The translations under genes were made by a program, and so were the position numbers. DNA of 64,000 bases from an uncultured Candidatus Poseidoniales archaeon (GTDB lineage: Archaea; Thermoplasmatota; Poseidoniia; Poseidoniales; Thalassarchaeaceae), in NCBI GenBank assembly GCA_964618995.1, contig CAZUBQ010000001.1:83632-147631 (forward strand), written 5' to 3'. The notes under the pieces were generated by a model that worked only from the letters and a program-made list of their open reading frames with translations, did not search any database and had not been told where the DNA came from. Positions 1,629 through 54,957 of the stretch are shown one piece after another; the stretch's first letter is position 1; each line of letters begins with the position of its first letter.

Positions 1629-3167
1629 TTAAAACATCCGCGCTAGATGATGGCGTCTGGTGGTCAGTTCGCCCGTAACGCAGCAAGGACGAGGGTCTTC
1701 GAACTCGCCGAGGGTGTGTCCGAGGATTGTGAGGCCGGTGGTCTTCTCTAGAACCTCAGCAGCGGCATCGTTACCGCAGAAAGCAACCTCGTGTACCACC
1801 CCGTCGTCAATCTCTTCAGATAGACACCATTCACCACTTTCATCCTGTATCAAATTGGGAAGGGGCTTGATGCACTTCGATTGATGCTGCGATGACCTGC
1901 TTCTGAGTTCGTCAGCAACTGCATCCAATTCAACAGCGACAGCTTCGGATATTCCATCCAGTGGGATACTTTGCTTGCCACCAGTCCGCCTTGCCGCCAA
2001 TGCAGTGCCGGATGAGAGATCCCGTGGCCCAATCTCTAACCTGAGTGGTACTCCACGAATCTCCCAGTCGTAGTACTTCTGTCCAGGTCGTAGATCCCTG
2101 TCGTCGACGTGCACACGCAATCCGGAGGCTCTCAACTGCTCGGCTATCTCACAGACCTTGTCGACAACAACTGGGGACGTATGCGCGGCCACAGGGATGA
2201 GCACCACCTGATGAGGGGCGATGGAGGGTGGAAGGATTAACCCAGCATCATCACCATGGACCCCGACCACAGCTCCTAGGAGGCGTTCTGACATCCCATA
2301 TGTCGTTTGGTGGCAGTGACGATGTTCACCATCCTCTGCTTCGTATGTGATGTCGAAGGCTTGGGCCCACTGGTCACGGTAATGATGACACGAGGCGACC
2401 TGTAGAGTACGTCCGTCAGGCATCAGAACGTCGATGGCGATGGTGTACCATGCACCGGGAAAGGTGTCCCAGACTGGGCGTTTGTTGACAAGGTATGGCA
2501 GACAAAGATCGTGCATCAATCGAGATACGATATCCAAATCCTCCTCGATTTGGCGTGTGGCATCGTCTTCGTCTGCATGAGCAGTGTGTGCCTCGAAGAA
2601 GTGAATCTCCCGCACTCGAATGAAAGAACGCGTCTGCTTGGTTTCATAGCGGAACGTGTTGACAATCTGGTAGGTCTTCAAGGGGAGGTCGACATGGCTG
2701 CGCACCCACAGAGCGAACAGTGTGTACATCGCCGTCTCAGAAGTGGGACGTAGGAACATCGGCTGGTCCAGTTCATGCTCACCAGCATGTCGTACCCAGT
2801 AAACCTCGCTGGCAAACCCCTCTGGTTCATCCTCGATGCGCAGTTCAGAAGGGTCTACTCCAGCCTCACGTGCGGCCTTGAGCCGGGCGACGAGACGGTT
2901 CTCTTTCTCGAGAAGTTCATGCGGGATGAGAAGGGGGAAACTCACCTCATCGTGGCCAGTAATCTCCATCTGGTTGTGCGTCAACTGGTCGATGAGCTTC
3001 ATCGTCTTCCATCCATAGGGCCTCCAGACATCCATCCCTTTGATTGGGTAGCGTTTGTCGACGAGGTCAGCGATCTCAACTATTGCGGGATACCACGCAT
3101 TGAAATCCGAGTGAGGAGGTATGCCTCTCTTGGCGCCCGCGCGCGCATCATCATCCGCGCCAGCCAT
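1629..3167 (-). CDS. proS: Prolyl-tRNA synthetase, archaeal/eukaryotic type
   Basis: Class II aaRS motifs are present (FRYE, YPIKGMDVWRPYGW, anticodon-binding and C-terminal Zn-like domain). Start moved to the internal ATG at 3167 (MAGADDD...) because the track start at 3197 is TTG. Confidence 0.85.
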   Translation of the reverse strand: MAGADDDARAGAKRGIPPHSDFNAWYPAIVEIADLVDKRYPIKGMDVWRPYGWKTMKLIDQLTHNQMEITGHDEVSFPLLIPHELLEKENRLVARLKAAREAGVDPSELRIEDEPEGFASEVYWVRHAGEHELDQPMFLRPTSETAMYTLFALWVRSHVDLPLKTYQIVNTFRYETKQTRSFIRVREIHFFEAHTAHADEDDATRQIEEDLDIVSRLMHDLCLPYLVNKRPVWDTFPGAWYTIAIDVLMPDGRTLQVASCHHYRDQWAQAFDITYEAEDGEHRHCHQTTYGMSERLLGAVVGVHGDDAGLILPPSIAPHQVVLIPVAAHTSPVVVDKVCEIAEQLRASGLRVHVDDRDLRPGQKYYDWEIRGVPLRLEIGPRDLSSGTALAARRTGGKQSIPLDGISEAVAVELDAVADELRSRSSQHQSKCIKPLPNLIQDESGEWCLSEEIDDGVVHEVAFCGNDAAAEVLEKTTGLTILGHTLGEFEDPRPCCVTGELTTRRHHLARMF

Positions 3168-3206
3168 GGACGACCGCCCATTCGGTCTGTCCTTCAACCT
3201 GACGCC

Positions 3207-3494
3207 TCAGACGTTGTCCGCACCGTTTACTTCCGGGGGACTCACCAACGCGACGAGAGAAGCGAGCATCCACGCCACTTCGAGCACTACGAACGCCCAT
3301 TCACCAGTGTGTACTGCTCGAATACCGAGAATACCTGATCCGAATGCCATCAACCCTAGGTATGACCGACCACGGCTGTGGATGATGCCTCGAGTCTCCA
3401 ATGCGAACGCACCGAGGATGCATAGCATGCCGAGGTAGGCGAGCAATGCTGTCACTGGCTCAAGTCCAGGGTAGGCTAGAACCTGTTCAGTCAT
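3207..3494 (-). CDS. Small hypothetical membrane protein (3 TM)
   Basis: 95 aa from ATG at 3494 (MTEQVLAYPG...). Three hydrophobic segments. The ATG lies 4 nt from the coaBC stop codon. Confidence 0.35.
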   Translation of the reverse strand: MTEQVLAYPGLEPVTALLAYLGMLCILGAFALETRGIIHSRGRSYLGLMAFGSGILGIRAVHTGEWAFVVLEVAWMLASLVALVSPPEVNGADNV

Positions 3495-3498
3495 GTGT

Positions 3499-4695
3499 TC
3501 ACCCGCAGATGGCGGTTTCAATCAGTTCGGCGAGTTCATTGAGGTTGGAGATGGGCTTTGGTTCTGAATCATCACTCACCCACATCCCTCTCCTATCGGT
3601 ATCCCCTGACACTTCCTCGAGATGATTCGCCACCACGCCGTCCAGATCATGCTTCTTCAGCAGCGATGTCGCAGAGTCGATGAGTTGGTTGTCACTGACT
3701 CCGGATTCGAGTTTGAAAGCTATGCGGCAACTGTCACTGCACAGTGATGTCAATGCATCGAGATGCTTAGTAGAGCGCACCAACCCCAATCCCCATTGTT
3801 CCGCACCACTGGAGACCTTCTCTGATTCAGGCTCAGCGACTACATAGTCGAGTACCGCGGCAGCATGCACCCAAGCCGTTGGAGCATTGTCCGATGCAGC
3901 AAGCTCCATCAATGCACTGAGCATGTCATCGGGGTCATGTGCACTGATTACTGATGGTAGTTTGAATGTAGGGTGACTAGTTACTTCTCCAGATACAATA
4001 TCCACTGAATGGCCCATTCTATAGAGGTGCTCGGCAATCACCCACCCCGTTCTGCCCGACGATGAATTGGTAATCCAACGGACAGAATCCACTCGACTTC
4101 GATTTCGTCCCAGTGTCACTACAACACGCCTTCTCTCAGGTCTACGTGAATTGACCAGGTGGCAAAGATCAGCGACAATTTGCACCGCGTCAGGTGTCTT
4201 GTAGCGACCTTCCTCCCGCTCACCCCAAACGACCGACGCCCCTTCAGCGACAACAGCCTGGCACAAATCATCGGTTACTGGGTCGTCGAACAGGTCATCG
4301 TGCATCGAGGGAACGAACATGATTGGGTCGAGTCGCCCACGCGCAGCGCTCAGGGCCATCTGGATAGGGGTGTCGAGAACGCCATGAACGTGGGCTGCCA
4401 GGCAACGCCTAGTCGCGGGAGTGACAAGGACGACATCATGGGGGTCCAGTTGCGCCATCTCAGCACCCCACTCGATGATCGGTTTGACTCCACCAGCCCA
4501 TTCTACAGCGAGTGGGGAAATCACCCTCTGGGCGGAGTGGGACATGATTACAGTCACTATTGCCCCGTGCCTACGTAGTTCACGCAGCAGACGTACTGAA
4601 TCTACTGCTGCGATGCCTCCGCAGATACCCAACAGTACCTTGCAATCCGACAAGGATTCTGAACGGCGATCTACAGTACGGTCCACTGAATCCAT
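3499..4695 (-). CDS. coaBC: Bifunctional phosphopantothenoylcysteine decarboxylase / phosphopantothenate-cysteine ligase
   Basis: N-terminal flavoprotein domain (KVLLGICGGIAAV...PAT) and C-terminal DFP/CoaB domain (VTLGRNRSRVDSVRWITNSSSG). Start placed at internal ATG 4695 (MDSVDR...). Confidence 0.8.
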   Translation of the reverse strand: MDSVDRTVDRRSESLSDCKVLLGICGGIAAVDSVRLLRELRRHGAIVTVIMSHSAQRVISPLAVEWAGGVKPIIEWGAEMAQLDPHDVVLVTPATRRCLAAHVHGVLDTPIQMALSAARGRLDPIMFVPSMHDDLFDDPVTDDLCQAVVAEGASVVWGEREEGRYKTPDAVQIVADLCHLVNSRRPERRRVVVTLGRNRSRVDSVRWITNSSSGRTGWVIAEHLYRMGHSVDIVSGEVTSHPTFKLPSVISAHDPDDMLSALMELAASDNAPTAWVHAAAVLDYVVAEPESEKVSSGAEQWGLGLVRSTKHLDALTSLCSDSCRIAFKLESGVSDNQLIDSATSLLKKHDLDGVVANHLEEVSGDTDRRGMWVSDDSEPKPISNLNELAELIETAICG

Positions 4696-5396: not shown

Positions 5397-6425
5397 TCAC
5401 GTATCAGAGATTGTGAGGTTCTTCCAATACTCTTCTGGAACTTCCTGTGCTAGCCTGAGACCACCTAGGGCCCCTAGTTGGACAGGGTCCTCGACGATAT
5501 GCACCTCAATCTCACCCATGTCGGCCAACAGCTCCTCGAGCGAAGCACCCAGGCCACGGATGGCAGAGCCGCCACCAGCGAGGATGATGTTCTGCCTGAA
5601 CTGGTCGTGATATTCCGGGTTGGATTCAGAAAGCAATTCCTTGATGTTTGCAACAATTGGACCGATTATCGCTTCGCACGCCGTCTGCATGCACTCAGTG
5701 ATATCAAGCGACATCGATTTTCCTTCGATGGAGAACTCGACGATAATCGGGTCGTCTGGGGGTGATGTAGAGGTGAATGAGTGTTGCTCCTTCCACCGAC
5801 GCGCCATGTCCTTCGTGATCTGGGCACCAGCGTATTTCCGCTGAATCTCCTGAATCAACATAGAGTCTATGACATCGCCGCAACTATTGATGTGCAACTG
5901 ATCCTCAGGCTTTGGTATAGTGCCATAGACGCGACAGATATCTGTGGTACCTGCACCGATGTCAACAACGATGGTGTGCTCAAGCATGTCCAGTGCGTAG
6001 GCGACGGCGAAAGGTTCCGAGATAATCATGCAAGCGTTCACCGTGCCTGCTGCTGCGTCAAATATCGCAGTCTTGTCTACGTGGCTTGCCTCGGCTGGAG
6101 CACCGATAACGGCGACTACGCGACCGTAACTCTCGGGGTCAGTGAGGTTGATCATGTGGTTGATGAAGTGGGCGATGAACTTCTTGTCCTCAGGAGAATC
6201 CTTGATCACCCCATGTTCCAATGGGCGATAGAGATTCAGGGCCAGCCTGTTTTTGAGTGCCTCTTCACCGAAAAGCACGTCGCGTCTCAGGAAATTCTTG
6301 GCAATCGAATCTTTGGGAGTCCCTATGACTGTCAGCACCTCTTCCTCATCTTTCTCGCTGGAGACAACGACCGAGCGGAACGTTCCGAGGTCAATTCCGA
6401 TGTAGAGTGTGTCTGATGTTGCCAA
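5397..6425 (-). CDS. Actin-fold ATPase (MreB/ParM/Ta0583-like archaeal actin homologue)
   Basis: Phosphate-1 motif YIGIDLGTFRS, phosphate-2 motif VVDIGAGTTD, adenosine motif ILAGGGSAIRGL. 342 aa. Apparent TTG start at 6425. Confidence 0.65.
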   Translation of the reverse strand: MATSDTLYIGIDLGTFRSVVVSSEKDEEEVLTVIGTPKDSIAKNFLRRDVLFGEEALKNRLALNLYRPLEHGVIKDSPEDKKFIAHFINHMINLTDPESYGRVVAVIGAPAEASHVDKTAIFDAAAGTVNACMIISEPFAVAYALDMLEHTIVVDIGAGTTDICRVYGTIPKPEDQLHINSCGDVIDSMLIQEIQRKYAGAQITKDMARRWKEQHSFTSTSPPDDPIIVEFSIEGKSMSLDITECMQTACEAIIGPIVANIKELLSESNPEYHDQFRQNIILAGGGSAIRGLGASLEELLADMGEIEVHIVEDPVQLGALGGLRLAQEVPEEYWKNLTISDT

Positions 6426-7586: not shown

Positions 7587-8726
7587 TCAGGTGTCGATTG
7601 AAGAGAGTACTGTGGCGATGCCCATACCGCCACCGATACACATAGTTGCCAACGCATATCGCACTCCTTCTCGCTTCAGTAACGCCGCAGCCTTGCCCGT
7701 GACGCGCGCGCCACTGGCTCCGAGAGGATGGCCGATGGCGATTGCGCCCCCATCCTGATTCAGGAGGCGATCATCAATACCGAGTTCATCTATCACAGCA
7801 AGTGACTGGCTAGAGAACGCCTCGTTCAGTTCGATGACATCCATGTCTCCTATCGTTAATCCCGCTCTATCCAGAGCCTTTCGAGTGGCAGGAACTGGTC
7901 CGATTCCCATTATCTCTGGTGCGACGCCGGCAACAGCGGTACTGACTATGCGCGCCAACGGAGTGAGGCCCCGCGCCTCTGCGAACTCTTCGGAAGTGAC
8001 GACCACGAATGAAGCACCGTCGGTGAGCGGCGAGGATGTGGCCGCCGTAACCACACCATCGTCAAGGAAGGCGGGCGGAAGTCCAGCCATTTTCTCCAGG
8101 GTTGTGTCAGCGCGAATGCATTCGTCAGCGGAAACCTCGCCTACATCAGTGTCAATCACAACAATCTCGTCATCCAATCTGCCAGCATCGCGGGCCGCGG
8201 CCGCCTTCTGATGGCTGGCAAGGGCGAACTCCTCCTGGCGGATGCGAGGGATTCCGTGCAATTGCGCTACGTTCTCAGCCGTGATTCCCATGGCGATGTA
8301 CGCCTCTGGATACTCCTCCTGCATCTGTGGATGCGGACTGCGGTTGAAACCACCTCGCTCGACTCGACTCATCGTCTCAATGCCTCCACACACGAAACAT
8401 TCTCCCGCGCCCAGCATGATTGCTCCTGCAGCGGCGTGGATTGTCTGCATGGAAGAACCGCACAAACGGTTGATGGTGGATCCTGGAACGGTAACCGGTA
8501 ACCCTGAGCGATAGGTCAGTATGCGTCCAAGGTTCAATCCCTGCTCACCCTCAGGATAGGCGCACCCGAGTAGCAGATCTTCCACATCATCTCCTTCAAG
8601 CCCACACCTAGAGAGTAATTCACGCACCACAGGAGCTGCGAAATCTTCGGGGCGTACGTGTGTGAGGCCACCCCTATGAGCAGGAGTGAACGGGGAACGA
8701 GCGTATCCGACGATGACAGCCGCCAT
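7587..8726 (-). CDS. Acetyl-CoA C-acetyltransferase (thiolase)
   Basis: Thiolase motifs are present (NRLCGSSMQ active Cys, GHPLGASGAR, CIGGGMG). Start at ATG 8726 (MAAVIVGYARSPF). Confidence 0.85.
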   Translation of the reverse strand: MAAVIVGYARSPFTPAHRGGLTHVRPEDFAAPVVRELLSRCGLEGDDVEDLLLGCAYPEGEQGLNLGRILTYRSGLPVTVPGSTINRLCGSSMQTIHAAAGAIMLGAGECFVCGGIETMSRVERGGFNRSPHPQMQEEYPEAYIAMGITAENVAQLHGIPRIRQEEFALASHQKAAAARDAGRLDDEIVVIDTDVGEVSADECIRADTTLEKMAGLPPAFLDDGVVTAATSSPLTDGASFVVVTSEEFAEARGLTPLARIVSTAVAGVAPEIMGIGPVPATRKALDRAGLTIGDMDVIELNEAFSSQSLAVIDELGIDDRLLNQDGGAIAIGHPLGASGARVTGKAAALLKREGVRYALATMCIGGGMGIATVLSSIDT

Positions 8727-8831
8727 GTCTCGCCGACAGGTGAGGCCGCCATAATCATTCATGACCGCTGCTGCAGTGCCATCATCGCCATACCGTTGGG
8801 GTTATCAGGAGGTCACCGGTCGGCCGCTCCG

Positions 8832-9551
8832 ATGATTCGACAATGCCGACTTCACGGGCACTTTGAAGGTGAACTATGCCCCGCCTGCAACGACGAGGGA
8901 AAGTTCGTCATGAACGGCCGCGAGAGAGACAGTATAGCGCGCAGGCTCGCTCTGATTCTAAGGCACGCACCAGAGAAGTTCGACCTAGAGATGGACCTGA
9001 ACGGCTGGGTAAGCATCCGCGACCTCTCGAACGCGCTTTCCAAGCGTGACAAGCGACTTCACTGGCTGCGCGACAGGCACATCGAGGCGATTGCAGAAAT
9101 CGATGAAAAGGGCCGTTACGAAATTCGGGGAGGGATGGTCAGAGCTACGTATGCACATACGGTGGAAATTGAACTGGATCTTCCCACCGATCTGATTCCT
9201 GACCTGTTGTTCTATCCCTGCTCTGAAGAAGAATCGGAGGTGCTGCTCGAGACAGGAATCAAGCCCGGTGGACGACGCTGGGTCCATCTGTCGAAGACTG
9301 TGACCGCTGCATGCAATGCCGGCCGAGTACACCATGACCATCCATTGATCATCGAGGTCGATACAATTCAGATGCAGGCTGATGGGAACACCATCTTTCG
9401 TGCTGGCACAACCGTCTACCTCACCGAAGATACTCCTGCAGAGTACTGCCAACTGCTTCCCGCTGACAATCGTGAGTACGAACTCATGGTAGATTCCTGG
9501 GGAGACGCTGAGCAACTGTCTGAAGTCACCACTTCATCCGAAGAGGAGTGA
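8832..9551 (+). CDS. kptA: RNA 2'-phosphotransferase Tpt1/KptA family
   Basis: The LRHAPEKFDLEMDLNGWVSIRDL and HLSKTV...RVHHD-type motifs resemble Tpt1. Start chosen at ATG 8832, outside the overlap with thiolase. Confidence 0.65.
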   Translation: MIRQCRLHGHFEGELCPACNDEGKFVMNGRERDSIARRLALILRHAPEKFDLEMDLNGWVSIRDLSNALSKRDKRLHWLRDRHIEAIAEIDEKGRYEIRGGMVRATYAHTVEIELDLPTDLIPDLLFYPCSEEESEVLLETGIKPGGRRWVHLSKTVTAACNAGRVHHDHPLIIEVDTIQMQADGNTIFRAGTTVYLTEDTPAEYCQLLPADNREYELMVDSWGDAEQLSEVTTSSEEE

Positions 9552-9554
9552 GTT

Positions 9555-9884
9555 TCACTGGTAGCCGCCGCACGCGGGGCAGAATGGAACATCGGTCTCC
9601 AGATTCTCGTCACAGTGTCGACAGACCGATGGGTCCCCCTCAGGCACAGTCCCATCCTCATCATCACTTGTTGCGAGCAGGCGCACGCTCGGCACCTCTT
9701 CGAACGGCTCGATGTCTTCCGAAGCGCGGGCCATCACATGCGCCTGGAACTCCAATGCCTCCTGCAACGCGGCCTCCAATCGCCATATTCGTTGTTCACG
9801 CAATCGCTTGTCCTGAATCAGTTCCGCTTCCACCAGTTCTGCTTGCAGATGCCGTACGAACTCATCTGTAGTGGCTTCGGTCAT
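9555..9884 (-). CDS. Small coiled-coil protein with C-terminal zinc ribbon
   Basis: ATG at 9884 (MTEATTDEF...). Helical, charged middle region. CRHC...(11)...CPAC at the C-terminus. Confidence 0.4.
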   Translation of the reverse strand: MTEATTDEFVRHLQAELVEAELIQDKRLREQRIWRLEAALQEALEFQAHVMARASEDIEPFEEVPSVRLLATSDDEDGTVPEGDPSVCRHCDENLETDVPFCPACGGYQ

Positions 9885-9967: not shown

Positions 9968-10825
9968 ATGACGAGCCCCCATACCCAGGCCTCATGGGTC
10001 TTGATCAAGTTCGGAGGGGGTCTCATCACGGAGAAGCAGAATTTGTTGACCGTACGCAAGCAGGTCATCGATTCTCTGGCCGGTGCGGTATCCGAAATCC
10101 AAGTAGCAGGAAAATCACCCATCGTAGTCCACGGAGCCGGCAGTTTTGGGCATATCAAAGCAAAACGGTGGCGACTGCACGAGGGGAGAATAGAAGGGTG
10201 GACTCCAGAATCAAGCAATGATGAATACATCATGAGTCAGGATGAGGCTTGCCTCTCTGTGCATAGGGACATGCTCAACCTGAATGGGCAGGTTGTCGAA
10301 TCCCTGACTCGGGCAGGACTCAGCACCTCTGTTCACCCTCCACGAGACTGGGCCAATGGAACCGGACCCGAATTCAAGGGGGAATTCATTGATTTTCTCG
10401 ATCCCGATAGTGACACGATTCCAGTATTCTTCGGGGATGTAGTCCACTGCCCGAATGACGACTTCGGCATACTCTCAGGAGATGATGTTGTGTTCCGTCT
10501 GGCGAATGAACTCGGAGGCGTCAGTGCTGTGGTGTTCTGCATAGGGGGTGCACAGGGATTGCTCACAGCCCCCCCCAATGTGACTGGTTCTGAATTGGTG
10601 ACAATCTGGTCAACTGACATGAACCTGCATGGTCACCATGATAGCGCAATTGATGTCACTGGTGGCATTGCCTTGAAGGCAGCTCGTGCTGGAAGCATCT
10701 CCCAGGTGGTAGACGATGTCTGGTTCGTAAACGGTGAACACCCTAACAGAGTGGTCGAGGCGGCGCTGGGTGGGGAACCAATGGGCACTCGAATAGTCCC
10801 TGCATCTGGACAACCACTCGATTAA
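9968..10825 (+). CDS. ipk: Isopentenyl phosphate kinase (amino-acid-kinase fold)
   Basis: LIKFGGGLITEK, VVHGAGSFGH and GGIAL motifs typical of archaeal IPK. ATG at 9968. Confidence 0.8.
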   Translation: MTSPHTQASWVLIKFGGGLITEKQNLLTVRKQVIDSLAGAVSEIQVAGKSPIVVHGAGSFGHIKAKRWRLHEGRIEGWTPESSNDEYIMSQDEACLSVHRDMLNLNGQVVESLTRAGLSTSVHPPRDWANGTGPEFKGEFIDFLDPDSDTIPVFFGDVVHCPNDDFGILSGDDVVFRLANELGGVSAVVFCIGGAQGLLTAPPNVTGSELVTIWSTDMNLHGHHDSAIDVTGGIALKAARAGSISQVVDDVWFVNGEHPNRVVEAALGGEPMGTRIVPASGQPLD

Positions 10826-10859
10826 ATGCCCACGCACCCTCGAGAGAGCCGTGAGCGAG

Positions 10860-12551
10860 ATGGGTGAAGACACTGCCGACATACTCGGCGACGCGTACGA
10901 CAGTTCACAAACGGGTATGATGGATGAAGAGTGCATTCTCATCGACGAACATGACAACCCCCTCGGGCCCGGTAGCAAGGTCCTTTGCCACCTAGGGGAA
11001 GGACGACTACATCGCGCTTTCAGCGTTTTGTTGTTCAACTCAGAGGGGCGATTGTTAATCCAGAAACGCGCAGGTAGCAAGATCACCTTCCCAGGGGTGT
11101 GGGCGAACTCCTGTTGTAGCCATCCACTACATACTTCAGAGGAACTTGAGGAGGGGGTAGGCGTCAAACGTGCAGCGATACGCAAACTCGGACAGGAACT
11201 CGGAATTTCGCCTGAACAAGTTGCCGTAGATGACTTTCAATTGGTATCTAGGATGCATTACCACGCACGCGCTGATGAGCGCTGGGTCGAGCATGAAATC
11301 GACCATGTACTGGTGATTCAAGCGGATGTCGACATCGAGGTCAATCACAATGAAATCGAAGAGATTCGATGGGTCACTGCGGACCAACTCGCTGACATGA
11401 TATCAGGCGCCCCAAACAACAGCACTGTGTTCGCACCTTGGTTTTTGGAAATCTCAGACCGATTCCTCCCCTCCTGCTGGGACAATCGGGATGACCTCGC
11501 TGACGATGGACTCATCCATGAAGTGGGCCTTCTGACTAGCGCAGGCGCTGCTTCCGACGAAGGATCGCTGCTCGAAGCTCTCGTCGTCCATCGCGACAGG
11601 GTCGAGCAAGCCATCGATGAAGCCCTCGCCAAAACGATGCATGTACGTCTGCGCTCTGCCATGCAGCACCTATTCATGGGCGGTGGAAAACGTCTGCGTG
11701 CAATCCTTCCATGGCTGGTTGCGGACGCCGCTGGTGATGCCCACCAGGGACTATACGACTTGGGCGCGGCGATTGAGATCATCCACAATTTCACCTTGGT
11801 CCACGACGACATCATGGACAATGATGCCCTACGTCGTGGTAGACCTGCTGTGCACGTCGAGTTCGACAATCCTACGGCCATCAATGCAGGCGACGCCATG
11901 CTCGCACTGTCATTCGAGGTGCTGAGCGAATCCGAGGCAATCTCCGACGACCACTTCCGTCGTTTGGTGCAAATTATCGGAAGCATGGTCAGACGTGTAT
12001 CCGAAGGGCAACAGATGGACATGGATTTCGAGAATCAGGATGATGTGTCAGAGGATGCTTACATGCGCATGATAGCGGGTAAGACTGCAGCCATGTTCCA
12101 AGCCTGCTCTGAATGCGGTGCAATGCTCTCAGGAGCCGATAACGAGACGGTCATGGCAATGGCTGAGTGGGGAATACAACTCGGATTATGCTTCCAACTG
12201 ATGGATGATCTGATTGATGTTACAGGCGACTCCGAAACCCTCGGCAAGCCTGCAGGTAGTGATATTCTTGAGGGAAAGAGAACCCTCATCGCTATCCACG
12301 CGCTGCAACAGGATCAGGACATTCTCCCAGTGTTCCATGAGTTGTACGGTAGTTACTCCGACGATGTGAATGATGAGCGAATGAAGCAGGCCCTAGCCGA
12401 ACTCCGGACTGCAGGCTCGATTGACCACGCTCTTTCGCGCGCCATGCACCACCATTCCCGAGCGCATGAGTTGCTCAATATTCTTCCAGTAACCGGGGCA
12501 CGTGACCTGTTACGGGAACTCACCGACTGGCAACTGGTGAGGATATCCTGA
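10860..12551 (+). CDS. Fusion protein: type-1 isopentenyl-diphosphate isomerase (Nudix) N-terminal + geranylgeranyl/polyprenyl diphosphate synthase C-terminal
   Basis: N-terminal ~200 aa: HRAFSVLLFNSEGRLLIQKRAGSKITFPGVWANSCCSHP...E (IDI-1 Cys/Glu motifs). C-terminal ~340 aa: first DDxxD in LVHDDIMDNDALRRGRP, second in FQLMDDLID. Single uninterrupted ORF. Confidence 0.8.
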   Translation: MGEDTADILGDAYDSSQTGMMDEECILIDEHDNPLGPGSKVLCHLGEGRLHRAFSVLLFNSEGRLLIQKRAGSKITFPGVWANSCCSHPLHTSEELEEGVGVKRAAIRKLGQELGISPEQVAVDDFQLVSRMHYHARADERWVEHEIDHVLVIQADVDIEVNHNEIEEIRWVTADQLADMISGAPNNSTVFAPWFLEISDRFLPSCWDNRDDLADDGLIHEVGLLTSAGAASDEGSLLEALVVHRDRVEQAIDEALAKTMHVRLRSAMQHLFMGGGKRLRAILPWLVADAAGDAHQGLYDLGAAIEIIHNFTLVHDDIMDNDALRRGRPAVHVEFDNPTAINAGDAMLALSFEVLSESEAISDDHFRRLVQIIGSMVRRVSEGQQMDMDFENQDDVSEDAYMRMIAGKTAAMFQACSECGAMLSGADNETVMAMAEWGIQLGLCFQLMDDLIDVTGDSETLGKPAGSDILEGKRTLIAIHALQQDQDILPVFHELYGSYSDDVNDERMKQALAELRTAGSIDHALSRAMHHHSRAHELLNILPVTGARDLLRELTDWQLVRIS

Positions 12552-16157: not shown

Positions 16158-17501
16158 ATGGCACAGGATGTGGGTTACTGGGAGGTGCCCCCAATGTTGA
16201 AGCAGGTCGGACAGGTCGATTGGATGATGGCGTTCAGGGATCATCTTACAGATGCGCTGAGAATCTCTGAGCCGACGAGCGTTGTCACCGAGATCCGAGA
16301 ACGAGCCGCAGAGTGTGGAGGCACATCTCTGCTGTTCGAGAACCTGCCTGGTAGCCCCGGGCATCGTGCTGCCGTGAACGTGTGCATGCGCGAAAACCTG
16401 GCACGCGCTTGGAACATCGACCCATCGGAACTCATTGACCTGATGGGCTGGGCGATGGAAAATCCGAGTGATGACTTCGTTATTCTTGAGGTTGATTCGG
16501 CACCTGTCATGGAGTGCTCAATGGAACCGGTCGACCTAACCCGCTTACCGATACCATGGCACTATCCCGAAGACCGCGGCCGTTACATGTCAGCCAGCAT
16601 CGTCATCGCTGAGCATGCTGGTGTGCGAAACGTCTCCTACCATCGGCAGTTCATCCGTGACAGTGACCACGTTGTTGCCCGCCTGGTGCCTCGCCACCTC
16701 ACCGCGTTGTTGGACAGTGCCAGATCTGACGATGAGACTGTGAGCATCGGCGTGGTGAATGGGGCTGATCCCACCGTTCTTCTGGCTGGGGCGATGTCCT
16801 TCAGTGAACCGCTCGATGAGTTGACCGTTGCCAACAGCCTGCACAAGCGAGTCCATGGCCGACCGTTGGAATTGGTCTCCTTGGAGAACGGAATCATGAT
16901 TCCCGCAGGTGCTGAATATGGGATGGCGGCTACCATACTTCTCGAGGATGATGACGAGGGCCCGTATGTTGACATCACCGGTACGGTCGATGATGTGAGG
17001 CAGCAACCAGTGTTCAGCATCGATAGTCTGCACCACCGCACTGAGCCAATCTTCCATGCTATCGTTCCTGCTGGAGCTGAGCACTTGGCACTGATGGGAT
17101 TGCCCCGTGCCCCCACGATCAAGGCTGCTGTGTCACAGGTTTGTGAATGCCATGATGTCGTGCTGGGGGAGGGTGGATGCGGCTGGCTGTCGTCGGTGGT
17201 ATCGATAACTCCCCGAACTGAGGACGAACCGCGGGCAGCCATCATGGCGGCATTCGACGGACACCCCTCGATGAAATCCGTGACCATCGTCGACTCTGAC
17301 ATTGACATCTCCGACCCTCAGAGAGTAGAGTGGGCCTTGATGACCCGGTGGCAACCAGATCAGGACACGGTGATACTGTCCAACCAACGAGGCAGCAGTC
17401 TCGACCCGACCCGCTCTGATGACGGTGTGACTTCGAAGATTGGATACGACGCCACAATCCCTCTCGGAGCTGACCGTGGGCCATTTACATCGGTATTGTG
17501 A
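16158..17501 (+). CDS. UbiD-family (prFMN-dependent) decarboxylase
   Basis: End-to-end similarity to UbiD (LLFENLPGSPGHRAAVNVCMRENLARAWN; C-terminal RWQPDQDTVIL...GYDATIPLG, compare E. coli TTRMDPARDTVLV...GLDATNKWPG). Confidence 0.75.
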   Translation: MAQDVGYWEVPPMLKQVGQVDWMMAFRDHLTDALRISEPTSVVTEIRERAAECGGTSLLFENLPGSPGHRAAVNVCMRENLARAWNIDPSELIDLMGWAMENPSDDFVILEVDSAPVMECSMEPVDLTRLPIPWHYPEDRGRYMSASIVIAEHAGVRNVSYHRQFIRDSDHVVARLVPRHLTALLDSARSDDETVSIGVVNGADPTVLLAGAMSFSEPLDELTVANSLHKRVHGRPLELVSLENGIMIPAGAEYGMAATILLEDDDEGPYVDITGTVDDVRQQPVFSIDSLHHRTEPIFHAIVPAGAEHLALMGLPRAPTIKAAVSQVCECHDVVLGEGGCGWLSSVVSITPRTEDEPRAAIMAAFDGHPSMKSVTIVDSDIDISDPQRVEWALMTRWQPDQDTVILSNQRGSSLDPTRSDDGVTSKIGYDATIPLGADRGPFTSVL

Positions 17502-32329: not shown

Positions 32330-35300
32330 CTATCGTCCTCGAATTCTGTCGAGAACCTTGCCCCGCAGCGGCATGTTGTGTTCCCAGGCGAACTCCTTGA
32401 TCACGCGGACCGCCTCCTTCTCCAGCTTGGGGTCGGTCACGAAATCTGTCACGTCGATGATGTCGTCCCTCGTATTCGCCTTGAAGGCGGCGATAGCATC
32501 CTCGTTGTGGAACACTAGGTAGGCCGAGCCGAAGCCGAACCGCTCGCGCAGCAGAGCCGAGAAATATGGGGCGAGCGGGTCTGAGGGGGGGAGTACGAAA
32601 TCCCTCATTGGCGGTAATTCCGAGGCATTCTCGAGCATCTCTTTGCGCCCCCAGCAGATCTCGAAGATGTCTTCGAGCAGGAATCCCTTGATGAACACGC
32701 CATCGTCCTCCAGTTGCTTGAGCACATCCATCACATCCTCTGGCTTGAACGGCCTGCCAGCGAGCCTCTCGAACTGCTTCAGGGTGATGACGGGAATCTC
32801 CTCTATCAGTTCACGCAGATACTCCTGCTTCAACTCCAGAACATCGACGTCCGTCAAGGGGTCGACGGTACGGAAGCCACCTCGGTAATCCTGCACCAGG
32901 TGCCCAGAGCGGATGAGTGGTTGGGCCAGTTTGCGGAACTCGGAGCGGGTCATCGCATGCCTGTCCATGAACAGTTGGGGATCGGAATTCTCTGAGAAGA
33001 ATTCGAGCACGTCGAGCAACTCCTCGTCAGGTGGCTGGTTGCGGATGGTGAGCAATCGCTGGAAGTGCTGGTAGGGAGCGTATACCCGATGACTGCGCAG
33101 GTTGGTTCCTTGGTGCAACTGGCTCGCAGTCGCCATTGACTTCAGGTCGACGCGGTACATCTCGCATCTGCCGCGCAGAGCGAAATCGTCGCGCACCTCA
33201 GCAATCTGCCTGACTGCCAACGTCTCATTCTCGCTGCGCGTCTTCTGGTGCAGGTTCGTGTTGTAGAACAGCGTACGAATCGACTCGTTTGGCGGACGGG
33301 GGTCCATCACACCGCCGCGCATCATGCGCTCACCGTCGCCGACGAAGCGGAATCCTATGTCCTCAAACGCCTTCTTGGTGGTGTCATCAGCCAGCGCAAT
33401 CGACTCTCCATTGAAGTTAGTCAACAGTGCCACGTCGACCAGAGTGTCCCTGTAGTTGTTCAGTAACCGTTCGAACTGCTTCGTGAACTCGTCCAGATAG
33501 GCGTGTGGAATGTGGATGTCCCTAACCTCAAGGTAGTCGTTGACCTTGTACATCAGGATGCGACCAACAGGGTCCACTCCCTTGAACACGGGATAGTACC
33601 ATCCCTGCTTGAGGACGTAGCGCACCTCCTGGATGAATCTGGAGCAGAACGGGTCGGACTGTGTGAGAATGCGCATGTCGCGGTCCTCGCGCACGCTCTT
33701 GCGCACTTGGATGGCGTCCTCGGGCAAGCAGTAGAACTCAGTAAGTTCAGGCTGCAGCGCCAGCACCACAGAAATCTTGCCGGCATCGATTAGTTCACGG
33801 ACGGCCTCATCGACTTCTTCGGGTGAACGGCTGATGTAATTGCCAAGTGTGTAGCGCTTGACCGGACCGATACGCTTGATCAGTTCAAGAAGTGCATCGA
33901 GGAATGGCATCGGCTCGTAGACCTCGTGCACACGATGGAACAGCGACAGGCTGCGCTTACGTTCAGGCAATTCCTCGTACTGCTTGACGAATACCATCTG
34001 GCGCTCGAGGTTGGCGAGGGCGTGTTTAGCGTGGTTCATCACATGTTTGTGCTCGTCACCCTTCGGGATGTCGATGAACAGGTCCTTCCTCACCACATTC
34101 TCTCCTGCTGGCATCTTGCTGAGTACCTTGGTCTCCATTTCGCCGACCCACGGCTCTGGCCTCAGGCCCAGCAACAGTGGAAGTTGATCGATTTTGGTGT
34201 AGCCCACCCGATTGTGCAACAACCTCCCCATGACCACGTCGGGGTCATGTTTGAGGTCCTTCCAGTCGGCGAAACGGTACTCTGATACGCGGTCCAGCAG
34301 TTCGTGCATCTTCTGGAACATGACGTGAGATTCGAAAGCCTCCAACGGATCCTCGTGGAGTTTGAAGGACTTGGACAACAGCATATTCTGGAGCAGACGA
34401 TATTCAATCACTTTCTCCTTACCGCCGGTTATGTAGTGTTCATCCACTTTGAGAATAAATTCCCCTTCGTCCGTTCCTCTATAGAATCCTATTGAAACCA
34501 CGTTGCGTACTTCCAGTTCATGCAGCATGTTCTCGATCATCCTCTGTGGGAAGGGTAACCGTTCATCCAATTGCTCCAGTTGCTGTGGACCTTCACTACC
34601 CAGCATGTCAACCAATTTCACACGCAGGCACTCGTGTGGGTCTGACAAGGGTACATCCGCCCATGAACTGGGATTGTTTCCCTCGAATCCGTCGGCCATC
34701 TTGTATGTCAGCCCGCCAGTGTAGAGTTGGCGCAGGTCGTCCAATTCTCCCGCACCTTGGCTAGCGAGGACGCCTAGGGTACCGTGAATGTCCGCCATTC
34801 GACCTGAGAACCATTTGCCATCGACCTGATCGTTCCCAGTTCCTTTGATCTTGGTAATATCGTCCCGTTTGAGCAGTTCATCCCGCCACTGGCGCAGGAT
34901 GGCGTTGTCGATTCCCTCGAGCTTGTCGGCATACAGTGGATTCTGTAGGCCACTTTCCAGCCCTCCACCCATGTCCATGAGTTTCAGCAGACCGTCGGCG
35001 TCCTCTGGCACGGCCACTTTGTCGCGGTAGTACTGGTCGACCCCCATGGAATCGAGGTCGGTTGCAAGAGCACGGCGCCCGAGCAACCGGCGCAGAATCT
35101 CCGGGTCGATGTCCTTGATGAGGTAGGCTCGGGTGCGCAGCGCAAGCAGGTCCTCGAACGCTGACATGTAGAGGTTCATGCCCAGTGGCGATGGAATCTT
35201 CACCTGAGTGTGAATGATGCGCGCGTCGCCTTTGATCACATCATCGATGAACGATTCGAGTCCGGGCAGGTCAAGGTCGTGTTGCAGAATCTCGTTGCAC

Positions 35301-37639: not shown

Positions 37640-37756
37640 GATACTTCTCGCCTTTGAATTCGGCGGACAGCGCACCGAGGCGATATATCAATCATTCCCT
37701 ATTCAAATGAAAATCGATTACCCTCCCATCGGTTCAGCGGATGAACAAGGTGGGTT

Positions 37757-54049: not shown

Positions 54050-54901
54050 TCAGGCGTAGTCATAGAAACCCTGGCCGCTCTTGCGCCCCAACTTACCCTC
54101 GGCAACCATCTTCTCAAGGAGCGGGGCGGGGCGGTACTTGTCATCCTTGAAGCCTTCGTGCAGGACGTTCATGATGTGCAGGACAGTATCGAGACCGACC
54201 AGATCCGCAAGAGCCAGTGGGCCGATGGGATGATTCATTCCGAGTACCATGATGCCGTCGATGGCGTGTGCATCGGCGATTCCCTCCTCGTATGTCAACA
54301 CCGCTTCGTTGAGCATCGGGCAGAGCAACCGATTGGAAATGAATCCCGGCGAATCGTTGCAACACAACGCCGTCTTGCCCATTCGCTCTGCAACCAGCAT
54401 CACCGCTTGTGTCACCTCCTCATCAGTCTCCTTGCCGAGGACTATCTCGACCAGACGCATTATCGGAACCGGATTCATGAAATGCATCCCTATGACGTTG
54501 TTCGGACGCCCAGTACTACCAGCGATGTCATTGATTGAGATGCTGCTTGTGTTGCTGGCGAGAATTGCTTCGGGATTGCACAACTCATCCAGTTCGGTGA
54601 ACAGAGAGAATTTCAAGTCTGGAATCTCAGGAACTGCTTCGATGACGAGATCAGCCTCTTGCGCCGCAGAATTCTCAGTAGAGGTAGTGATGCGCTGGCG
54701 CGAGGCATCTGCATCCTCCTGGGTCATGCGCCCCTTCTCGACCAGCTTCCCCAGCGAGAACTCGATGGTGCCGATACCGCGCTCGACGAACTCATCGGAG
54801 ATGTCGATCATCGTGACCTGATAGCCAGCACAGGCAGCCACCTGCGCGATGCCATTTCCCATCTGTCCCGCGCCGATTACCGCGATGCATTCGATGTCCA
54901 T
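54050..54901 (-). CDS. hbd: 3-hydroxyacyl-CoA (3-hydroxybutyryl-CoA) dehydrogenase
   Basis: IAVIGAGQMGNGIAQV Rossmann, HFMNP, C-terminal dimerisation domain. Confidence 0.8.
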   Translation of the reverse strand: MDIECIAVIGAGQMGNGIAQVAACAGYQVTMIDISDEFVERGIGTIEFSLGKLVEKGRMTQEDADASRQRITTSTENSAAQEADLVIEAVPEIPDLKFSLFTELDELCNPEAILASNTSSISINDIAGSTGRPNNVIGMHFMNPVPIMRLVEIVLGKETDEEVTQAVMLVAERMGKTALCCNDSPGFISNRLLCPMLNEAVLTYEEGIADAHAIDGIMVLGMNHPIGPLALADLVGLDTVLHIMNVLHEGFKDDKYRPAPLLEKMVAEGKLGRKSGQGFYDYA

Positions 54902-54957
54902 CGTGCTCTCGACCCCAGTCGCCCAAATAGCGGTTATGCCACACCTGACTGCCGCGC

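Follow-up and report, generated by a model that had tools for sequence, protein, structure and literature searches.

A fused type-1 IPP isomerase and probable GGPP synthase that is conserved across the archaeal order Poseidoniales

Across the order Poseidoniales (Marine Group II archaea), a type-1 IPP isomerase (IDI-1) and a prenyl diphosphate synthase, probably a GGPP synthase (GGPPS), are encoded as one continuous polypeptide. The fusion is real and lineage-wide; it is not a rarity, but the norm in these archaea. We have studied the example contained in a window of 64 kb (the whole stretch of DNA that was analyzed). We consider it very likely that its 563-amino acid product is a natural bifunctional IDI-1::GGPPS that originated by read-through between two genes and was established early in the history of the order.

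The archaea of Marine Group II are abundant, uncultured inhabitants of the surface ocean, and how they make their membrane lipids is debated. The fusion is placed where the mevalonate pathway meets C20 synthesis, and for that reason should be a useful handle on the products of these organisms. Although it joins two well-known enzymes, the fusion itself is apparently uncharacterized. The preliminary description of this DNA had not recognized the architecture as a characterized one, and we likewise found no account of an IDI-GGPPS fusion from archaea or MGII in the literature covered, which lay largely outside the subscription journals. In public records the fusion is named after one of its halves, as an IDI by NCBI and as a GGPPS by JGI. 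Such naming can make automated pathway reconstructions call the other step missing.

Organization of the locus

The fusion gene lies downstream of a gene for isopentenyl phosphate kinase (IPK), with features whose coordinates are collected in Table 1. This is the arrangement originally described, an IPK gene followed after a short gap by one ORF of 563 aa, except that the gap is 1 nt shorter than the 35 nt given before. The ENA gene call places the IPK start at the second of two alternative TTG codons (10001), giving a protein of 274 aa. There is also an in-frame GTG at 10851, upstream of the ATG of the fusion. In the window sequence the fusion ORF runs without a stop or change of frame throughout, including the region 11460-11560, so that the proposal of a single ORF across the junction is borne out here, and it is conserved in relatives. 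IPK and the fusion are probably co-transcribed as a putative operon. Scanning with bacterial-type models (the host is an archaeon) revealed no terminator-like site in the gap between them, and the promoter and terminator counts that it gave were those expected from shuffled sequence.

Table 1. Coordinates of the features of the fusion locus and two conserved neighbours
Feature	Position in window	Strand	Comment
Thiolase (acetyl-CoA C-acyltransferase)	7587..8762	-	TIGR01930, 424 bits; conserved neighbour
IPK gene, very probable	9968..10825	+	285 aa counted from ATG 9968
IPK alternative starts	TTG 9965, TTG 10001	+	
IPK-to-fusion spacer	10826..10859	+	34 nt from IPK stop to fusion ATG, from sequence
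Fused IDI-1::GGPPS ORF	10860..12551 including stop codon	+	563 aa, single frame
IDI-1 domain (predicted type-1 IPP:DMAPP isomerase)	10917..11498	+	Residues ~20-213
Codons C86-S87-H88	11115..11123	+	Predicted catalytic Cys and metal-ligand His (E. coli C67, H69)
Codons E144-H145-E146	11289..11297	+	Predicted metal-ligand Glu and catalytic Glu (E. coli E114, E116)
IDI C-terminal tail and short, probably flexible tether	11499..11579	+	Residues ~214-240; putative ancestral two-gene junction
Type-I short-chain trans-prenyl diphosphate synthase domain, probably GGPPS	11580..12548	+	Residues ~241-563
Chain-length region and first Asp-rich motif, F311-T-L-V-H-D316-D-I-M-D320	11790..11819	+	From sequence and PDB alignment
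Second Asp-rich motif, D449-D-L-I-D453	12204..12218	+	From sequence
UbiD-family decarboxylase	16158..17501	+	TIGR00148, 281 bits (cutoff 244.85); conserved neighbour

The upstream gene is very probably an IPK, in keeping with its earlier assignment. Its ORF matches Pfam AA_kinase with 60.6 bits, and all seven of its seven PDB matches are IPKs or IPK-related proteins. The GSFGH motif with its conserved His aligns with the PDB IPKs ('vvhgagsfgh' against 'lvhgggsfgh'), and the score for NCBIfam IPPK_Arch is 119.5 bits, i.e., 0.5 bit under the cutoff of 120. In every Poseidoniales locus where the contig reaches far enough upstream, the IPK gene is found directly 5′ of the fusion, and the conserved gene order in Poseidoniales is thiolase-Tpt1-IPK-fusion-EF2. 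The synteny of the thiolase is kept in most of the loci, and this enzyme is a candidate for the step that opens the mevalonate pathway. The UbiD-family gene holds the same position in the relatives L001, L085 and L087; its product is presumably a candidate for the anhydromevalonate-phosphate decarboxylase of the archaeal mevalonate pathway.

The N-terminal half as a type-1 IPP isomerase

Judged from its sequence, the N-terminal half of the fusion is a type-1 IPP isomerase. It scores 164.4 bits with the NCBIfam model TIGR02150 (IPP_isom_1), whose curated cutoff is 105.8, and 148.1 bits with PRK03759 (cutoff 127). Human IDI1 (2icj) aligns with residues 10-213 of the fusion (E=1.6e-53), with ~50% identity over the full length. 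The half is also ~50% identical to stramenopile IDI1 but only 34% identical to the IDI1 of Nitrosotenuis, and pairwise alignment gave 34% identity to E. coli Idi.

In the alignment with E. coli Idi, H44, H51, C86 and H88 of the fusion are matched to H25, H32, C67 and H69, and Y134, E144, E146 and W194 to Y104, E114, E116 and W161. In the E. coli enzyme we take C67 and E116 to be catalytic and H25, H32, H69, E114 and E116 to be the metal ligands, with Tyr104 and Trp161 as further active-site residues. All eight IDI active-site residues are invariant in 67 homologs of the fusion. The preliminary description had read the N-terminus as IDI-1 from its C/E catalytic motifs, and this reading is upheld by both the TIGR02150 score and the presence of every catalytic and metal-binding residue.

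A domain search, also suggested there, found Pfam NUDIX and polyprenyl_synt both present. The NUDIX match covers residues 50-183 and is to the generic family only, as would be expected if the N-terminal domain were instead a Nudix hydrolase, converting IPP and DMAPP into monophosphates in a regulatory futile cycle with IPK. A futile cycle of this sort has been described for Nudix/IPK pairs in plants. The position of IPK as the adjacent gene would fit it, and relatives carry a small separate NUDIX gene a few genes downstream (16446-16835 in L085). However, the Nudix hydrolase models of NCBIfam score no more than 25 bits on this half where TIGR02150 exceeds its cutoff, and neither the full-length identity with human IDI1 nor the presence and invariance of every IDI-1 catalytic and metal residue accords with a hydrolase. 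We therefore reject the generic Nudix hydrolase as highly improbable, on the basis of the IDI-specific HMM score and the active-site residues.

The C-terminal half as a probable GGPPS

The C-terminal half is clearly, from its motifs and matches, an archaeal type-I short-chain trans-prenyl synthase. Residues 263-514 match Pfam polyprenyl_synt (PF00348) with 244 bits, and there are full-length matches to GGPPS structures in the PDB (5jfq, E=6e-58; 1wy0, E=1e-55). The two DDxxD boxes reported earlier for this trans-prenyl synthase are both there, DDIMD at 316-320 and DDLID at 449-453, and to them can be added a chain-length residue of the GGPPS type. In the alignment, the counterparts of the region of F311 and the first Asp-rich motif are HNFTLVHDDIMD in 5jfq and HNYSLVHDDIMD in 1wy0. 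The aromatic residue at position -5 is F311, where 5jfq has F and 1wy0 has Y, and there is no two-residue FARM insertion. F311, the Asp residues of the DDIMD box, D449, D450 and D453 are invariant in the 67 homologs.

Since both DDxxD boxes are accompanied by Phe at -5, the product is probably GGPP (C20). The half passes no NCBIfam equivalog cutoff that fixes product length, scoring 273 bits for IdsA_Meth (cutoff 468), 258 bits for GGPP_syn (cutoff 500) and 245 bits for gerfarn_diphsyn, the geranylfarnesyl-PP synthase (cutoff 560), and the nearest GGPPS from outside Poseidoniales is only ~40% identical. With scores under all of the equivalog cutoffs, it is one chain-length residue and the likeness to archaeal GGPPS structures that speak for C20 specificity, and the enzyme may instead have a dual C15/C20 output or make C25. 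The protein might then be bifunctional as proposed, but with FPP (C15), a C15/C20 mixture or geranylfarnesyl-PP (C25) as its main product. The three scores lie close together as well as under cutoff, and archaeal synthases that make both FPP and GGPP are known. On the other side, the invariant F311 at -5 and the insertion-free FARM match the type-I GGPPS 5jfq and 1wy0, relatives are annotated by JGI as 'GGPP synthase type I', and there is no second GGPPS or other short-chain synthase among the larger ORFs scanned in the window. We regard a main product other than GGPP as unlikely.

Conservation of the fusion

The identical 563-aa protein is encoded on three contigs from two independent samples. 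The preliminary description had proposed looking for the fusion in related MAGs. An uninterrupted frame is present in 23 of the 24 Poseidoniales GTDB species genomes, within the same gene neighbourhood, and both domains are carried by all of the best 120 database clusters (120/120, from ENA, JGI, NCBI, Logan and Tara). The fusion spans both major families of the order despite ~45-50% divergence at the protein level.

The tether varies in both sequence and length among the homologs. Its dN/dS is 0.13-0.14 (0.14 in the comparison with the relative L003), and it is under purifying selection; the low ratio indicates that the tether is translated in frame. Modelling with AF2 gave two confident domains (pLDDT mostly 85-97 for the IDI domain) connected by a short tether of low confidence, with pLDDT <50 at residues 228-234. 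The model (pTM 0.60) contained no usable inter-domain geometry and no sign of active sites facing each other.

Could the single ORF be an assembly artefact, in which a frameshift or lost stop has merged two genes? Two-gene versions do occur in the relatives L085 and L024, and a 1-nt frameshift in one pilon-polished assembly (L087) points to indel noise at the locus in some data sets. Yet the same protein was obtained from two independent samples, the best 120 clusters are fused in all five sources, the frame is free of stops in 23 of 24 species genomes and the tether is under in-frame purifying selection. Evidently the artefact is improbable in the extreme, and we reject it.

Outside Poseidoniales, a search with the IDI domain through 1.84 billion representatives returned only one IDI::polyprenyl_synt protein, P0165. 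We have not accepted this singleton as a second class of fusion. One half is like stramenopile IDI-SQS and the other like type-III GGPPS, and it is possibly an assembly chimera.

Split relatives and the origin of the fusion

Four relatives (L083, L085, L086 and L024) have the same synteny with separate genes for IDI (235 aa) and GGPPS (332 aa) that overlap by 4 nt (9001-9708 and 9705-10703 in L085). The out-of-frame state in L024 is not an error, but belongs to a real split lineage common to all four. Alignment shows that the separate proteins are collinear with the fusion, with a total of 567 compared with 563 aa, and the natural split point in L085 and L024 falls within fusion residues ~214-240. 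In a Nitrosotenuis genome (L027), MVK, IPK, IDI1 and GGPPS are abutting genes. Read from these sequences, the fusion is simply one gene read through into its neighbour. We envisage that the two genes were translationally coupled and became joined by simple read-through, and that the fusion was fixed early in Poseidoniales, with a secondary split in at least one sub-lineage. In a tree of EF-2 (NJ, midpoint-rooted, from this one protein), the split lineage falls within fused lineages; such a tree polarizes secondary fission against repeated fusion only weakly. L087 is possibly a second split lineage within Poseidoniales; its split results from the loss of a single A in a short A-run of the pilon-polished assembly, which may be a genuine frameshift or an error.

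Proposed function

In the pathway that we propose, the upstream IPK would supply IPP, so that the order of the genes (IPK, IDI, GGPPS) is that of the reactions. The IDI-1 domain, with its Nudix fold, would convert IPP to DMAPP and back by adding and removing protons through Cys86 and Glu146, using a divalent metal bound by His and Glu. The prenyltransferase domain would then combine one DMAPP with three IPP to form GGPP, with two DDxxD-bound Mg2+ sites and a product pocket closed by Phe311. The GGPP would be used for membrane ether lipids, and probably for carotenoid/retinal synthesis too. The likeliest gains from fusion would be an obligatory 1:1 co-expression of IDI and GGPPS, and the placing of the source of starter units beside the elongating enzyme where the mevalonate pathway ends.

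Substrate channelling by the fusion is a plausible hypothesis. Engineered Idi-CrtE raises flux, and diatoms have a natural IDI-SQS fusion. A stronger claim, that this is a true channelling enzyme committing the mevalonate output to C20 and that its eukaryote-like IDI-1 is the record of an inter-domain transfer, seems to us distinctly doubtful. If true, the pairs of fused and split forms in one order would be a ready-made evolutionary experiment on linkage and flux, and the IDI-1 half would be tied to the history of eukaryotic IDI1.

The split lineage within the same order, and possibly L087 as a second one, is an argument that covalent linkage is dispensable, and suggests that the fusion is not essential. 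It could then be functional yet near-neutral, a frozen accident of stop-codon loss that provides 1:1 stoichiometry only, with no kinetic channelling. No linker has been gained (235+332 against 563 aa), the tether is poorly conserved and flexible by prediction, the nested lineage has gone back to two overlapping genes with its synteny intact, and separate abutting genes suffice in Nitrosotenuis. Nevertheless, the fusion has been kept in both major families across their divergence, engineered proximity of Idi and CrtE raises flux, and eukaryotes have independently fused IDI to downstream prenyl enzymes. We regard near-neutrality as a real possibility that falls short of being probable.

For the bifunctional IDI-1::GGPPS that we favor, any benefit of fusion is directly testable, because the genomes of close relatives hold natural split versions. 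A natural, lineage-wide fusion would back a design reached separately by metabolic engineers in the co-assembly of Idi and CrtE, and this single gene could serve as a compact part in building diterpenoid or carotenoid pathways.

Comparison with known systems

Archaea mostly use type-2 IDI (PMC3533463, PMC6107057), as the preliminary description had stated; none was found among the larger ORFs scanned in the window. The N-terminal half is of one fold family with known IDI-1 (human IDI1 and E. coli Idi; TIGR02150) and has all of the catalytic and metal residues, but it is archaeal and is continued at its C-terminal end by a covalently linked prenyl synthase. With archaeal type-I GGPPS/IdsA (5jfq, 1wy0) the C-terminal half has in common both DDxxD boxes, the aromatic residue at -5 and the lack of a FARM insertion, but it is preceded by an IDI-1 domain, has only ~40% identity to the nearest GGPPS outside Poseidoniales and scores under the equivalog cutoffs. 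Unfused IPK-IDI1-GGPPS clusters (Nitrosotenuis L027, and the Poseidoniales UBA596 lineage of L024 and L085) contain the same three genes in the same order and strand, with starts and stops that abut or overlap by 4 nt, and give two polypeptides rather than one.

Natural fusions of IDI with squalene synthase occur in diatoms (PMC6330534). The diatom and algal IDI-SQS proteins (e.g., Phatr3_EG02290) also have an N-terminal eukaryote-type IDI-1 followed by a downstream prenyl-chain enzyme, and their IDI halves are ~50% identical to that of the fusion. Their partner, however, is a head-to-head C15+C15 synthase of the SQS_PSY family that makes no direct use of DMAPP, and they are eukaryotic and arose in an independent event. 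The Poseidoniales fusion follows the pattern of an IDI-fusion enzyme, with a frame conserved in many species, but with polyprenyl_synt as the partner instead of SQS_PSY.

The same two activities have been brought together in engineered Idi-CrtE, with the rationale that IPP and DMAPP are channelled into GGPP; RIAD-RIDD scaffolds are one format, and docking-domain assemblies are reportedly another. Artificial Idi-CrtE assembly gave a carotenoid titre up to 5.7-fold higher (PMC6751169). Those constructs are artificial and non-covalent, made of bacterial or yeast enzymes in a 1:2 stoichiometry, whereas the fusion of Poseidoniales is natural and covalent.

A single frame for two enzymes

The preliminary description had placed an isopentenyl phosphate kinase (IPK) gene before a single-ORF fusion of type-1 IPP isomerase (IDI-1) and GGPP synthase (GGPPS). 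Sequence reading, Pfam and NCBIfam agree with it on both ORFs, their order and the single frame. The fusion ATG lies 34 nt past the stop of the first ORF, and the fusion runs without stop or frame change throughout, including the zone 11460-11560 that had been flagged as a possible site of interruption. The upstream gene is indeed IPK-like; every PDB match is an isopentenyl phosphate kinase or IPK-related, the GSFGH motif aligns, and the score against the NCBIfam model IPPK_Arch is 119.5 bits, half a bit short of the cutoff of 120. Both expected Pfam domains are found in the fusion protein, NUDIX at residues 50-183 and polyprenyl_synt at residues 263-514.

Could the fusion be an artefact of assembly? 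Besides the 93.5-kb ENA metagenome scaffold to which the window belongs, a contig of a second, independent sample codes for this 563-aa protein, 100% identical. The best 120 clusters from a homolog search of 5.8 billion clustered proteins have 53-100% identity and lengths of 419-606 aa (only one, a partial record, is shorter than 538 aa), and all 120 contain both domains. Those that carry a name belong to MAGs of Marine Group II, Thalassarchaeaceae, Poseidonia or generic 'Euryarchaeota'. In a survey with a single genome for each GTDB species, 24 Poseidoniales loci came up, and 23 of them have the IDI and GGPPS parts in one uninterrupted frame. The neighbourhood thiolase (-), Tpt1 (+), IPK (+), fusion (+), EF-2 (-) is kept. 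In comparison with the closest relative, the IDI part has a dN/dS of 0.07, the GGPPS part one of 0.05 and the tether joining them one of 0.13-0.14; the last value indicates in-frame translation of the junction, under constraint. The second sample, the clusters, the survey and the tether together exclude an assembly artefact for practical purposes.

Features of the window and of the unfused loci compared with it
Feature	Position	Strand	Remarks
MreB/actin-like gene	5397-6425	-	Pfam MreB_Mbl, Salactin and Volactin matches; syntenic across Poseidoniales loci
Bacterial-type thiolase	7587-8762	-	TIGR01930, 424 bits; two genes upstream of IPK; synteny kept
IPK ORF	9965/9968-10825	+	Pfam AA_kinase
Fusion ORF, 563 aa	ATG 10860 (in-frame GTG 10851) to 12551	+	Pfam NUDIX and polyprenyl_synt
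UbiD-family decarboxylase	16158-17501	+	TIGR00148, 281 bits; just past EF-2/S7/S12
1781-aa Lhr-type helicase with AlkZ-like glycosylase region	32330-37675	-	
3-hydroxybutyryl-CoA dehydrogenase	54050-55033	-	
1339-aa WD40 beta-propeller protein	54958-58977	-	
1638-aa protein, GH115_C and Ig-like domains	58989-63905	-	
MVK-IPK-IDI1-GGPPS cluster, Candidatus Nitrosotenuis sp. (ammonia-oxidising archaeon)	L027 2851-6211		
Split IDI/GGPPS loci, UBA596-like Poseidoniales lineage	L085 9001-10703; L086; L083 897-2293; L024 ~1846-3503		

Both active sites are intact

The N-terminal domain is an IDI-1, as had been proposed. The fusion protein scores 164.4 bits against the IDI-1-specific NCBIfam model TIGR02150 (cutoff 105.8), and its N-terminal 225 residues align over their whole length with human IDI1 (2icj, 2dho; E ~2e-53), and with E. 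coli Idi structures at E ~3e-21. In pairwise alignment with the E. coli Idi sequence, H44, H51, C86, H88, Y134, E144, E146 and W194 correspond to H25, H32, C67, H69, Y104, E114, E116 and W161, which in the E. coli structures bind the metal, form the Cys/Glu acid-base pair or, as Tyr and Trp, line the active site. An alignment of 67 fusion sequences shows no variation at any of the eight, C86, E146 and the metal ligands included. A generic Nudix hydrolase is ruled out by these residues and the match to human IDI1.

The C-terminal domain is the expected trans-prenyl synthase. It matches the archaeal GGPPS structure 5jfq (E=6e-58, residues 235-560) and also 1wy0, and has both Asp-rich motifs, DDIMD at 316-320, with no insertion, and DDLID at 449-453. 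Phe311, five residues before the first motif, is equivalent to a Phe in 5jfq and a Tyr in 1wy0; it is invariant across the 67 sequences, as are the aspartates of both motifs. By the established chain-length rule of type-I prenyl synthases, this residue sets an expected ceiling of C20 for the product. C20 stays a prediction because the three NCBIfam scores (IdsA 273, GGPP_syn 258, geranylfarnesyl-PP synthase 245) fall short of their equivalog cutoffs.

AlphaFold2, run on the same alignment, gave a mean pLDDT of 87.9, with both domains mostly at 85-97 and a dip at about residues 221-240 (below 50 at 228-234). The pTM of 0.60 reflects two confident domains whose mutual orientation is not fixed by the model. 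The C-terminal tail of human IDI1 still has its aligned counterpart in residues 205-225, and the tether of ~10-15 residues varies in sequence and length among relatives. The fusion is a full-length IDI-1, this tether and a full-length GGPPS, with no additional linker module. Two intact active sites, one of IDI-1 and one of a short-chain prenyl synthase, lie on a single conserved polypeptide encoded straight after IPK.

Split genes and the origin of the fusion

One Poseidoniales lineage (L083, L085, L086 and L024), sampled on a 1.86-Mb contig, a Tara scaffold, a 2.3-kb contig and the UBA596 MAG, encodes IDI (235 aa) and GGPPS (332 aa) as two genes overlapping by 4 nt (TTGA or ATGA). Gene order is that of the window from proS through RNase PH. 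The two proteins are collinear with the fusion (235+332=567 aa versus 563 aa), and they part within the variable tether. A neighbour-joining tree of EF-2 nests this lineage among fused ones, a position that favours one early fusion followed by secondary fission. Repeated fusion would be the less favoured history, to which a midpoint-rooted tree of a single protein leaves some room.

A second apparent split (L087 7001-8760) is due to one missing A after the WWP codons, where CCAACG is found and CCAAACG would put the genes back in one frame. Contigs of 1.9, 1.5 and 0.5 Mb show this split, and the one examined (1.9 Mb) belongs to an assembly polished with pilon; either the frameshift is real or long reads introduced an indel error.

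In Nitrosotenuis the genes for MVK, IPK, IDI-1 (213 aa) and GGPPS (324 aa) are consecutive, and the IDI stop abuts the GGPPS ATG. Both major planktonic archaeal groups, in the examples here, have a type-1 IDI beside GGPPS, yet the IDI of Nitrosotenuis, like that of E. coli, is only ~34% identical to the Poseidoniales domain. Among the nearest unfused relatives of that domain, at 45-52% identity, are proteins of eukaryotes (Albugo, human), a likeness that hints at inter-domain transfer in either direction. The window's IDI domain (10917-11498) scores 185 bits with human IDI1 versus 79 bits with E. coli Idi, and is ~46-52% identical to Albugo and diatom-type IDI; thaumarchaeal IDI-1 is more distant.

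Other genes in the window

The UbiD-family gene occupies the same position at the Poseidoniales loci with gene calls reaching that far (L001, L085/L086, L087). It is a candidate for the anhydromevalonate-phosphate decarboxylase of the archaeal mevalonate pathway, an assignment that, if true, would make the locus a loose isoprenoid gene neighbourhood. The thiolase may serve the mevalonate pathway as its acetoacetyl-CoA thiolase, or else take part in beta-oxidation.

Discussion

In the proposed scheme IPK would supply IPP, the IDI domain would equilibrate it with DMAPP, and the GGPPS domain, presumably a homodimer as in its structural relatives, would condense one DMAPP with three IPP to GGPP for ether lipids. 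The Poseidoniales are rhodopsin-bearing archaea, and carotenoid/retinal synthesis is another probable use. Fusion guarantees 1:1 expression and proximity of the two enzymes, and it may also channel DMAPP. A benefit from proximity would be in keeping with work on engineered Idi-CrtE assemblies (PMC6751169), where carotenoid output rose by 58% in yeast and 2.3-fold to 5.7-fold in E. coli. That the two enzymes also occur unfused, in the split lineage and in the Nitrosotenuis cluster, argues against a need for fusion. That true channelling of DMAPP and an inter-domain history of the IDI half should both hold seems to us improbable.

The preliminary description took IDI-2 to be the usual archaeal isomerase, in agreement with reviews of archaeal isoprenoid evolution, where IDI-1 is reported only in haloarchaea and Thaumarchaeota (PMC3533463; PMC6107057). 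Our full-text literature search, with most subscription journals outside its coverage, found no description of an IDI-1::GGPPS fusion. Public databases already contain the sequences, under names that are each right for one half ('isopentenyl-diphosphate delta-isomerase' at NCBI, 'GGPP synthase type I' at JGI). Taken alone, either half is an ordinary member of a well-known family; what is new is a natural, order-wide fusion, for which the present analysis adds an origin in evolution and, in the split lineage, a natural control. The preliminary observation and its interpretation are borne out: the fusion is a real and neat finding, of moderate interest but no great surprise.

Relation to other fusions

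The IDI domain alone was searched against 1.84 billion 50%-identity representatives, and long matches were domain-scanned. In that search IDI::polyprenyl_synt was confined to Poseidoniales representatives (P0121, P0122 and the fragment P0123) and one further protein, P0165 (L084 1279-2949), a singleton on a 4-kb metagenome contig. This joins IDI-1 to a eukaryote-type (type III) GGPPS (309 bits with human GGPPS); its IDI half is 80% identical to that of a stramenopile-type IDI-SQS and its GGPPS half resembles stramenopile GGPPS. This protein, treated here as unverified, is either a eukaryotic fusion that joined the two activities independently or a chimera produced in assembly.

A 672-aa protein of Ophiocordyceps camponoti-saundersi (P0194, RDA94783.1) came up in the same search and has HMG-CoA reductase at 55-429 and a C-terminal IDI-1 at 493-640; it is a further unusual fusion of mevalonate-pathway enzymes, or else two gene models merged into one. 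A 221-aa IDI-1 (P0127), 45% identical to the window's IDI domain, lies in a bacterial-looking biosynthetic cluster (L088 530-8714) with a ketosynthase, a UbiA prenyltransferase, an AMP-binding enzyme, a radical SAM enzyme, a thioesterase and a carrier protein.

Several IDI::squalene-synthase fusions were recovered in the IDI-domain search. The diatom-type fusion is a known architecture, but there the partner of IDI is squalene synthase, whereas in the Poseidoniales it is polyprenyl_synt.
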